Positions 36,088-37,038 of a stretch of DNA of 64,000 bases are shown piece after piece. The stretch covers positions 199,793 through 263,792 of the forward strand of contig JBFWNS010000002.1 in assembly GCA_050250935.1 (NCBI GenBank), in the 5' to 3' direction. Positions within the stretch are counted from its first letter, which is position 1; each line of letters opens with the position of its first letter. The translations under genes and the position numbers were made by a program. The notes beneath the pieces were generated by a model. The model saw only the letters and a list, made by a program, of their open reading frames with translations, made no database searches and was not told where the DNA came from. This DNA is from Candidatus Margulisiibacteriota bacterium (lineage in GTDB: Bacteria > Margulisbacteria > Marinamargulisbacteria > JBFWNS01).

Positions 36088-37038
36088 CTACGTATCTAGC
36101 CACCGAGTTACTTCTAAAATCCCCAGCAAAACACCCCCGGAAACGGTGTTAAAACCCACTCTGGCCATCAAGCCCACTCCCATCATCTTTCGTAATTGCG
36201 TTACAGAACCCGTTTTTAAAAAATAAGTGTGTGCTCTTTTTAGTTCGGCCATGATCTCCGAGAGTTTTTCCCCTTGTTTTAGTCGCGTTGAAATCAAATC
36301 TGCTGGGTGATTAATGATCGTTGCAACACCGCCTAAACCAATGCCATATCCTGTTTGAACCCATATATTGTCTTTGCCATTTGGAAAAAGATGATGATTG
36401 AGGTACCAAGTTCCCATAAAAAACGGGATGTTCCAGCTGATATCGGCGACCACCAGGGTCAAAAAACCTCGGTGTATCACAGGCCCTGCATGTTTTAAGG
36501 CTTCCCCCAGACCACAGCGTCTTTGCGCTGCAACGGCTAGCCCCACTTCGCTGAATTGCCGCCATGTGGCCTCGGGAAGGGAGGCCCCCGTAATGCTGAT
36601 AACTTGAGCTAAGCCCGATGAATGCCCTTCTTTAAAATGCTCCTTAAAATATTCTCTAAACCCAAAAAAAAGGGCTCCCCCAGGTACGCTCCATGCCGAA
36701 AAACCGATGCCTGGCCCAATGGTTCGACTCACCCTAAACCAAAAAGGCCGTTTCTGATGGGAAACAACTTGACGCACCACCTGAGCTTGGCGCGCTCGCA
36801 GTATCAGTGGAAATGACGCTAAATTCGCCCCAAAAGTAGCCGTACCCCCTTCTGCCCCTTTTACAATACAATCCCAAAGATTGGGTGTAGAAGGAGCCTT
36901 TGGATTTGGATCTGATTCATTTCGAAAACCCCATTGTGCTGTTCTAGAACTAGCATGGGCAACAGCAGGAACGGCGGCAAGACTCATGTCAAACTCCTTT
37001 AATTTGGAGGCCATCCTACCGAACATCTCTACAATCAA
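36088..37038 (-). CDS. Mitochondrial-carrier-family-like (eukaryotic-type solute carrier) membrane protein
   Basis: 316 aa, about 6 TM. Three-fold internal repeat with GLGGVATIINHPADLISTRLKQ (compare consensus aGgiAGaisktvvyPlDvvKtrlQ) and G...LMARVG repeat ends. Confidence 0.4.
   Translation of the reverse strand: MIVEMFGRMASKLKEFDMSLAAVPAVAHASSRTAQWGFRNESDPNPKAPSTPNLWDCIVKGAEGGTATFGANLASFPLILRARQAQVVRQVVSHQKRPFWFRVSRTIGPGIGFSAWSVPGGALFFGFREYFKEHFKEGHSSGLAQVISITGASLPEATWRQFSEVGLAVAAQRRCGLGEALKHAGPVIHRGFLTLVVADISWNIPFFMGTWYLNHHLFPNGKDNIWVQTGYGIGLGGVATIINHPADLISTRLKQGEKLSEIMAELKRAHTYFLKTGSVTQLRKMMGVGLMARVGFNTVSGGVLLGILEVTRWLDT

Follow-up and report, generated by a model that had tools for sequence, protein, structure and literature searches.

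Proteins of the mitochondrial carrier family (MCF, or SLC25) are a hallmark of eukaryotes. Here, a carrier-like gene on a bacterial chromosome is described. It is located at 36088..36987 on the minus strand of the window, that is, a stretch of 64,000 nt from a contig of a Candidatus Margulisiibacteriota bacterium, and its product is very probably a distant homologue of the mitochondrial carriers. Bacterial homologues of the family are already known. What is new is a further cryptic member in a genome affiliated with Margulisbacteria.

Two bacterial homologues have been studied, and both are from Legionella. LncP, a Dot/Icm effector, has all three signature motifs of a canonical carrier; it is imported via TIM9:10/TIM22 and transports ATP (PMC3252375). 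Lpg1137 of Legionella pneumophila is a cryptic SLC25 homologue that was found by remote-homology tools only, and its structural prolines and glycines remain conserved. It is a Dot/Icm substrate that localises to mitochondria, and homologues are known from 16 of 41 Legionella species (PMC5621508). Carriers are also present in L. longbeachae and Neorickettsia sennetsu (PMC3252375), and Babela massiliensis (Dependentiae) encodes carrier-family genes, which are listed among nutrient-import proteins (PMC4378268). All the named bacterial cases are from intracellular bacteria, and the two studied ones are injected effectors (PMC3252375, PMC5621508, PMC4378268). Among eukaryotic proteins, MTCH1/MTCH2 and SLC25A46 are divergent members of SLC25 in the mitochondrial outer membrane, in which the fold has lost the carrier function and gained other roles (PMC12410006, PMC12934571). 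Margulisbacteria themselves include an intracellular symbiont, 'Ca. Ruthmannia eludens' (PMC6784892).

An earlier note on this window, made from the letters alone, reported an open reading frame (ORF) of 316 aa for a mitochondrial-carrier-like protein. The ORF is present at 36088..37038 on the minus strand, with 316 codons counted from TTG at 37038 in the ORF list, and the peptides quoted from it, GAEGGTATFGANLASFPLILRARQAQ and GLGGVATIINHPADLISTRLKQ...GSVTQLRKMMGVGLMARVGF, are both located in its translation. The likely start is ATG at 36987, which gives 299 aa plus the stop codon. Reading the DNA directly, a Shine-Dalgarno-like AAGGAG (36994..36999, minus strand) is found 6 nt 5' of this ATG. 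The 299-aa form is identical to the NCBI entry MGE4169824.1, a hypothetical protein on a 289,672-bp contig of a metagenome-assembled genome of 'Candidatus Margulisiibacteriota bacterium'. The Logan assembly of SRR27751816 contains the same gene on a 33-kb contig with unchanged neighbours, and the gene call there begins at ATG 37026, giving 312 aa. Eukaryotic contamination and a chimeric contig are excluded because the same gene and neighbours are seen in this second assembly and the flanks are bacterial; besides, the gene is intron-less and is preceded by the Shine-Dalgarno-like site. It is a real gene on a genuine bacterial chromosome. A promoter and terminator scan near the gene gave no more sites than in shuffled sequences.

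By sequence comparison, the protein is far more divergent than the earlier note implied. Mito_carr (PF00153) is the sole suggestion from Pfam, in a single stretch at residues 224–259 of the 316-aa form. It covers only the beginning of the third repeat and scores 17.6 bits (E = 0.0032), below the curated gathering score of 22.3 bits, where three matches had been expected. The rule proposed along with that expectation, to drop the carrier identity at fewer than two Mito_carr matches, would discard it wrongly here, because Pfam detects one sub-threshold stretch. The NCBIfam scan gave no match. The PDB sequence search with the query alone yielded no carrier, just a chance match to PsaO (E = 0.099), and in a word-indexed search of 5.8 billion proteins the query finds itself alone.

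The exhaustive phmmer (HMMER) search of 1.84 billion representatives, which stand for about 15 billion proteins, returned the query's own entry, two protocadherins, and one carrier of 326 aa (P0004, E = 9.6e-4). The protocadherin matches (P0002 and P0003) are spurious, as a short segment alone is aligned. P0004 is KAA8498333.1 of the red alga Porphyridium purpureum, a PET8/S-adenosylmethionine (SAM)-carrier-like protein, and is a true carrier with three repeats (Mito_carr, E = 1.4e-46). BLASTP aligns it to the query co-linearly, residues 37–297 of the query to 36–322, with 25% identity. A profile of the query and P0004 retrieved 113 further proteins. All of them are eukaryotic Mito_carr proteins and none is nearer to the query; several SAM-carrier-like members align across 66–84% of it.

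Since this pair profile included the query, a hidden Markov model (HMM) was rebuilt without it from 96 of the retrieved proteins. The query scores 32.6 bits against the query-free carrier HMM. The best of 2,000 composition-matched shuffles scores 4.6 bits and the reversed query scores -2.4 bits. Of the 239 ORF pieces in the window, some of which encode membrane proteins of the MFS, TerC, SDF and AI-2E kinds, only the target scores (32.3 bits) and the next best is at 4.4 bits. When the single query is compared with 56 carriers by hhalign, the probability is 96.2% (E = 2.3e-9; 257 columns), and residues 27–297 of the query are aligned co-linearly with positions 23–300 of the profile. The protein resembles mitochondrial carriers far more than expected by chance. 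These comparisons make it very probable that the protein is an SLC25/MCF homologue, although a very distant one; the family membership appears robust only in the loose sense of homology. The core proposal, a eukaryote-type, mitochondrial-carrier-like protein in a bacterial chromosome, is in this sense upheld by the profile statistics, the co-linear full-length alignment, and a compatible structural model.

The carrier architecture consists of three repeats. Each repeat was tested with query-free repeat HMMs and 1,000 shuffles. Repeat 1 (residues 37–120, 36628..36879, minus strand; helices H1 at 37–74 and H2 at 100–118) is seen by the repeat HMM, Pfam, the motif map and the model. Tested as residues 33–124, it scores 12.8 bits against the generic repeat HMM, which is reached by 0 of 1,000 shuffles. 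Repeat 3 (residues 206–299, 36091..36372, minus strand; H5 at 208–237 and H6 at 262–298) is the best preserved, with support from the repeat HMMs, Pfam and the motif map. Tested as residues 202–299, it scores 19.1 bits against the generic HMM and 24.6 bits against the repeat-3 HMM, and again no shuffle in 1,000 reaches these scores. Repeat 2 (residues 121–205, 36373..36627, minus strand; H3 at 124–156 and H4 at 175–200) is placed by the model and is not recognisable by sequence: residues 119–205 score 0.9 bits, which 57 of 1,000 shuffles reach, so that the match is not significant. Only its second half (helix 4) aligns, and solely inside the whole-protein HMM match at 170–296. Pfam on the separate thirds gives 11.9 bits for repeat 1 (on the even helix), no match for repeat 2, and 12.5 bits for repeat 3.

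The thirds were also compared with one another using no carrier sequence. Repeats 1 and 3 are marginally similar (z = 2.8; 29 of 2,000), and neither of the pairs including repeat 2 shows significant similarity. The genuine carrier PET8, used as a control, gives a significant result for each of its three pairs (z = 3.9–15.7). The repeat HMMs and the self-comparison indicate that the tripartite signature proposed before can be demonstrated for two-thirds of the protein only. It stands for repeats 1 and 3; repeat 2 is not significant, and no signature motif is canonical in any of the three.

The six-helix profile of the earlier note agrees with six moderate maxima in the Kyte-Doolittle hydropathy plot. 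AlphaFold (AF2) run on the single sequence is unusable, with a predicted local distance difference test (pLDDT) score of 34. With a multiple sequence alignment (MSA) of carriers, pLDDT is 83 and the predicted template modelling (pTM) score is 0.79, and the model is laid out as three units of odd helix, matrix helix and even helix, namely H1–H6 plus three short helices. The ten best PDB matches of this model in Foldseek are all of carrier fold, led by the ADP/ATP carrier 6gci with a template modelling (TM) score of 0.60; UCP1 and carrier subunits of Tetrahymena complex IV are among the others. The next matches, unrelated ABC exporters, are below TM 0.2. Because the model leans on the carrier MSA, it serves here to check compatibility and is no independent proof of the fold. 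The product is predicted as a six-helix membrane protein compatible with the carrier fold.

Residues 1–36 (36880..36987, minus strand) form an N-terminal extension rich in Ala, Ser and Pro, MSLAAVPAVAHASSRTAQWGFRNESDPNPKAPSTPN, in which the earliest acidic residue is at position 24. Model confidence is low here, with pLDDT below 50 for residues 1–23 in the MSA-guided model. An A-H-A motif follows a short hydrophobic run in the extension. By composition, a presequence-like or signal-like role is possible, as is a mere disordered tail.

The residues kept and lost are distributed unevenly. Motif definitions follow PMC12410006, and a column is considered conserved if it is at least 80% in 56 carriers. 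Alignment to the carrier HMM by hmmalign placed the C-terminal half alone, so motifs were mapped by MAFFT and hhalign instead. The query is identical at 22 of 42 conserved columns. By class, it keeps 11 of 15 prolines and glycines and 5 of 13 charged residues.

The motif Px[DE]xx[RK]xxxQ on H1, H3 and H5 is not found intact. Proline is present in all three (under MAFFT), the acidic residue in one of three, and the basic residue in one of three (R143). The signature of repeat 1 is P60-L-I-L-R-A-R-Q-A-Q69 (PLILRARQAQ), where Pro and Gln are kept, Asp is replaced by Ile62, Lys by Ala65, and Arg by Gln67. In repeat 2, the register is either P138-EATWRQFSE (MAFFT) or Q144-FSEVGLAVA (hhalign), six residues apart, and this repeat matches conserved carrier columns only at G168, R173-G174 and F190. 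The signature of repeat 3 is P228-A-D230-L-I-S233-T-R235-L-K-Q, where Asp and Arg are kept and Lys is replaced by Ser. None of the three inter-repeat salt bridges of the matrix network is complete; Gln69, at the glutamine brace position, is kept.

On the cytoplasmic side, the motif [YF][DE]xx[RK] on H2, H4 and H6 is likewise not intact, and its core [DE]xx[KR] is seen in two of the three helices. H2 reads R111-E112-Y-F-K115 and keeps the charged pair E112..K115. H4 reads T193-W-Y-L-N197 and has lost the motif. H6 reads L291-E292-V-T-R295 and keeps E292..R295, and R276 is also kept. All three Tyr/Phe brace positions are non-aromatic (0/3 kept), and at most one of three cytoplasmic salt bridges is possible. 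Structural prolines and glycines are retained where the gate charges are gone, a pattern that suggests a fold under constraint and not one that drifts neutrally. It speaks against a canonical strict-exchange cycle, and also against neutral decay of the protein as a whole.

Among subfamily HMMs, the SAM-carrier-like one, built with P0004 excluded, scores highest at 29.1 bits, followed by the mixed UCP (uncoupling protein)/other HMM at 21.4 bits and the citrate/succinate-fumarate HMM at 5.9 bits. SAM-specific columns were defined as those of at least 80% in SAM-carrier-like sequences and at most 30% in other carriers. The query has 3 of 12 such residues (F107, G284 and G289), two of which are Gly. 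With this count and the modest HMM advantage, the subfamily is a hint only, and an assignment as a carrier of SAM is rejected.

The lineage of the host was approached through GlyS (24152-26215, minus strand). Its nearest named relatives are in Margulisbacteria and Marinamargulisbacteria, and its best non-self match among 5.8 billion clustered proteins is 42% identical. Judged from this protein, the genome is a very deep, essentially unsampled branch affiliated with Margulisbacteria. In such a lineage, many proteins without a Pfam domain are expected. The large domain-less neighbours that the earlier note took as effector-like, and as a hint of a host, are of this expected kind, since even GlyS reaches at most 42% identity. 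The adjacent fumarase was tried as a guide to taxonomy and synteny and rejected: FumC is ~73% identical to proteins across many unrelated phyla and is too conserved, and the source genome is absent from the representatives. The 80 reference-genome loci fetched via fumC contain no relative of the carrier-like gene or of its two neighbours, and scans of viral and JGI metagenome contigs gave no relative of the carrier-like protein.

The carrier-like gene is flanked on one side by msrA, purK/purE and hisG, and on the other by fumC, an MFS transporter gene and the gene for endonuclease III; glyQS are also in the window. The co-directional downstream gene, 86 bp past the carrier-like stop codon, encodes a protein of 590 aa (34229..36001, minus strand). 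Pfam/NCBIfam finds GHKL/HATPase_c at residues 133–241 and no HisKA, leaving a C-terminal region of ~350 aa without a domain, and its GC content at third codon positions (GC3) is 0.48. The end of this gene (34229-36001) overlaps the msrA ORF. The divergent neighbour (37086..38393, plus strand) encodes 435 aa with a GC3 of 0.43. Its C-terminal half is remotely similar to HMG-CoA lyase (NCBIfam PRK05692, 31 bits with a cutoff of 246; PDB 6nds, E = 1.1e-6), and an N-terminal extension of ~200 aa lies beyond this half. The carrier-like gene itself has a GC3 of 0.41, the third-lowest among 18 genes compared, where housekeeping genes are at 0.55–0.60. The three genes are compositionally atypical, which is consistent with acquired or accessory DNA.

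Pfam was run on about 45 ORFs of the window. It identified two-component systems (several histidine kinases and a response regulator) alongside a TonB-dependent receptor and transporters, the his, pur and aminotransferase genes, and toxin-antitoxin pairs, as well as a cytochrome P450, a serine recombinase and a terpene synthase. Components of a secretion system are absent from these scanned ORFs of the 64 kb, a result that is uninformative beyond the window, as the genome size is not given. The host-associated lifestyle hinted at in the earlier note finds no support in the visible data: there are his and pur biosynthesis genes, the TonB receptor and two-component systems in the 64 kb, and no secretion gene.

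Several other features of the window were observed. Three paralogues of 473, 466 and 598 aa are encoded on the plus strand at 52758-54179, 54201-55601 and 57841-59637. The first two are 35% identical (E = 4e-79) and the third is ~22% identical (E = 1e-9). None of them has a Pfam family and the first (473 aa) has no sequence relative in PDB. The trio makes up an expanded family specific to the lineage. Between two histidine kinases, a 635-aa protein (19429-21336, minus strand) contains a C-terminal terpene-synthase domain (residues 327–561) and an N-terminal half without an assigned family; its GC3 of 0.34 is the lowest seen. Near this gene is that of a 549-aa cytochrome P450 (12389-14038, minus strand; GC3 0.46). 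Both are compositionally atypical and were possibly acquired. The genes glyQ and glyS are usually adjacent. Here, a gene for an AAA_21/AAA_15 ATPase with AbiEii/OLD-like matches (26176-27297, minus strand) is located between glyQ (27294-28154) and glyS (24152-26215). At 60121-64000, a large serine recombinase of 524 aa (Resolvase, Recombinase and Zn-ribbon domains) is encoded, GC falls to 0.40–0.45, and GC and AT skews swing sharply; these features probably mark where an integrated mobile element has its boundary. Toxin-antitoxin-like pairs are PemK/MazE (44806-45135 and 45132-45452, minus strand) and a nucleotidyltransferase with an NTase-substrate-binding protein (30404-30715 and 30712-31134, minus strand). 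Both pairs were annotated on the syntenic Logan contig; their ORFs are present in the window as well.

The simplest origin of the carrier-like gene would be that it came from a eukaryote by an old horizontal transfer and then diverged rapidly. In support, 113 of 113 non-self profile matches are eukaryotic, there is no viral or metagenome relative, and GC3 is 0.41. The taxonomic pattern makes a eukaryotic origin of the gene quite probable. The inter-kingdom transfer proposed before is thereby retained as the most economical origin, on the basis of distribution and a weak subfamily preference. The prolines and glycines that determine the three-repeat fold are kept, and most charges of the two alternating-access gates are gone. 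As the gate charges are lost and repeat 2 is unrecognisable, the canonical strict-exchange transport cycle is probably not run. The protein is more likely a degenerate carrier, with either a leak- or uniport-type pathway or a role as a non-transport membrane protein like MTCH2, SLC25A46 and Lpg1137. The residue pattern thus leads us to consider a non-canonical mechanism fairly likely. The statement that combines homology, eukaryotic origin and a non-canonical mechanism has about an even chance of being right as a whole.

The site of action is more tentative. Our preferred guess, by analogy, is export into a eukaryotic host and insertion in its mitochondria, because the only studied bacterial cases, LncP and Lpg1137, act there; even so, this guess is somewhat more apt to be wrong than right. 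The bacterium's own membrane is a possible but less favoured site, and the absence of any retained function is less probable again. Host association is conceivable since an intracellular member of Margulisbacteria exists (PMC6784892), and together with the effector idea it seems plausible by that analogy.

Several points weigh against this reading of a transferred and non-canonical carrier. The protein is below the curated Pfam threshold and its repeat 2 has no support from sequence. The AF2 model depends on the MSA, the single-sequence model being useless. The carriers of the query-free HMM were gathered with a profile containing the query, and a mild bias towards it may exist. The direction of the transfer is inferred from taxonomic distribution and a weak subfamily preference, not from a phylogeny. 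Some salt bridges of the M-gate have been argued to be non-essential (PMC9104175), and the loss of salt bridges alone would be no proof of the loss of transport. The window contains no secretion system, no eukaryote-like repeat protein and no sign of genome reduction, and by its gene content it looks like that of a metabolically versatile bacterium. Finally, only one sequence is available, which puts purifying selection beyond test and keeps the following alternative standing.

The gene could be a decaying relic, transferred long ago, still open, and free of selection for a carrier-like function. It is a singleton with no orthologue in protein, viral or metagenome searches. Its divergence is extreme, repeat 2 is erased, gate residues are lost, and GC3 is the third-lowest among the 18 genes. 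A frame of 299 codons that is open and has a good Shine-Dalgarno site is at odds with decay, and so is the selective retention of residues (prolines and glycines 11/15 vs. charged 5/13; signature prolines 3/3 under MAFFT). Although unlikely, this alternative survives best.

Also unlikely is an effector of the LncP type in the full sense, which is the reading of the earlier note. Such a protein would be a carrier of nucleotides or metabolites that still functions, is moved into the host cell by a type IV or type III secretion system and is inserted by TOM/TIM22 in the inner membrane of host mitochondria, where it would alter energy metabolism. Precedents exist, since both studied bacterial homologues are Dot/Icm effectors reaching mitochondria (PMC3252375, PMC5621508), the other named bacterial cases (Neorickettsia and Babela) are intracellular (PMC3252375, PMC4378268), and Margulisbacteria include an intracellular symbiont (PMC6784892). 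The atypical composition of the gene and the Ala/Ser-rich N-terminal 23 residues without an acidic residue would also fit. However, LncP has three canonical motifs, while here no signature is intact and 0 of 3 matrix salt bridges is complete, and the exhaustive search gave no LncP-like protein at E = 1e-3. The 64 kb contain no secretion genes, and their biosynthesis and environmental-sensing genes are typical of a versatile bacterium.

Alternatively, the protein might be a working solute transporter in the bacterial cytoplasmic membrane, importing for example SAM or another metabolite from a host or the environment. Eukaryotic carriers can be expressed in functional form in bacterial membranes, e.g., in Lactococcus, which counts in favour of such a transporter. 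SAM-carrier-like sequences are the best matches, and the SAM-carrier-like HMM leads among the subfamily HMMs (29.1 bits without P0004); the gene has its own Shine-Dalgarno site and heads a co-directional string, and the carriers of Babela massiliensis are listed as nutrient importers (PMC4378268). However, two of the 3/12 SAM-specific residues are Gly, the gate networks are largely lost, and the helices are moderately hydrophobic only (KD19 maximum 1.2). The mixed UCP/other HMM scores nearly as high (21.4 bits), so the subfamily signal is weak. This makes a working transporter quite unlikely.

Chance resemblance of an unrelated helical membrane protein is very improbable. It would agree with the score below the Pfam gathering score, with a repeat 2 and an internal three-fold symmetry that cannot be demonstrated from sequence, and with the MSA-driven nature of the confident model. 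It is contradicted by 32.6 bits against at most 4.6 in 2,000 shuffles, the single match among 239 ORFs of the window, the end-to-end alignment by hhalign (96%), the unbiased scan of 1.84e9 proteins that picks a true carrier, and two separate repeats that match independently. An ancient relative of the carriers in prokaryotes, older than the eukaryotic radiation or separate from it, in a deep lineage sister to Cyanobacteria, could explain the extreme divergence and weak subfamily affinity, and the missing bacterial relatives could reflect sampling in a deep unsampled host lineage, but this is the least credible of all, as no second prokaryotic relative is seen at E = 1e-3 among representatives of about 15 billion proteins, the fused three-repeat architecture is already present, the best score is against one derived eukaryotic subfamily, and the atypical GC3 suggests acquisition.

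A cryptic case affiliated with Margulisbacteria, a phylum that is not represented among the named bacterial cases, would widen the known reach of eukaryote-to-bacterium transfer of the carrier fold, and would make an unsampled lineage a candidate for association with eukaryotes. It would also show that outside mitochondria the prolines and glycines of the fold persist and its gate charges are dispensable. A practical caution is that curated Pfam thresholds miss such proteins, as with Lpg1137. The present weight of the finding is moderate, with one sequence and with claims on function and lifestyle that go by analogy. Its value would rise sharply if the genome were host-associated, or if a phylogeny put the protein outside the eukaryotic radiation. 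The idea of an ancient relative, if true, would be the first clue to a pre-eukaryotic origin of the carrier fold.

Comparison with the known systems might shed light on the position of the carrier-like protein. With SAM carriers (SLC25A26/PET8/SAMC), it shares the near-full-length co-linear alignment to KAA8498333.1 at 25% identity and the best subfamily HMM. It differs in that the matrix and cytoplasmic networks, invariant there, are mostly absent here, and in that the gene is bacterial, intron-less and preceded by a Shine-Dalgarno site. MTCH1/MTCH2 and SLC25A46, likened by description, are models for the fate of a carrier without gates; they are proteins of eukaryotes, and one transmembrane helix has been lost from MTCH2. 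Neorickettsia sennetsu, L. longbeachae and Babela massiliensis, also compared by description, have sporadic carrier genes in bacteria in common with this genome. These three are established intracellular bacteria.

LncP, named in the earlier note as the precedent, is similar in kind: it is a six-helix carrier-family protein of ~300 aa on a bacterial chromosome, presumed to be of eukaryotic acquisition. However, LncP has a three-fold signature with all three motifs and is readily recognised, while the carrier-like protein fails Pfam and its gates are degenerate. As to kinship with LncP or Lpg1137, no bacterial protein but the query reached E = 1e-3 in the word-indexed and exhaustive searches, no pairwise alignment being made. 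Unlike Lpg1137, the carrier-like protein is a singleton and comes from a different phylum, and its 64 kb contain no secretion gene. Nevertheless, Lpg1137 can be considered the closer analogue: like the carrier-like protein, it is a bacterial protein of about 300 aa with very low identity to carriers, whose carrier kinship is hidden from routine annotation.

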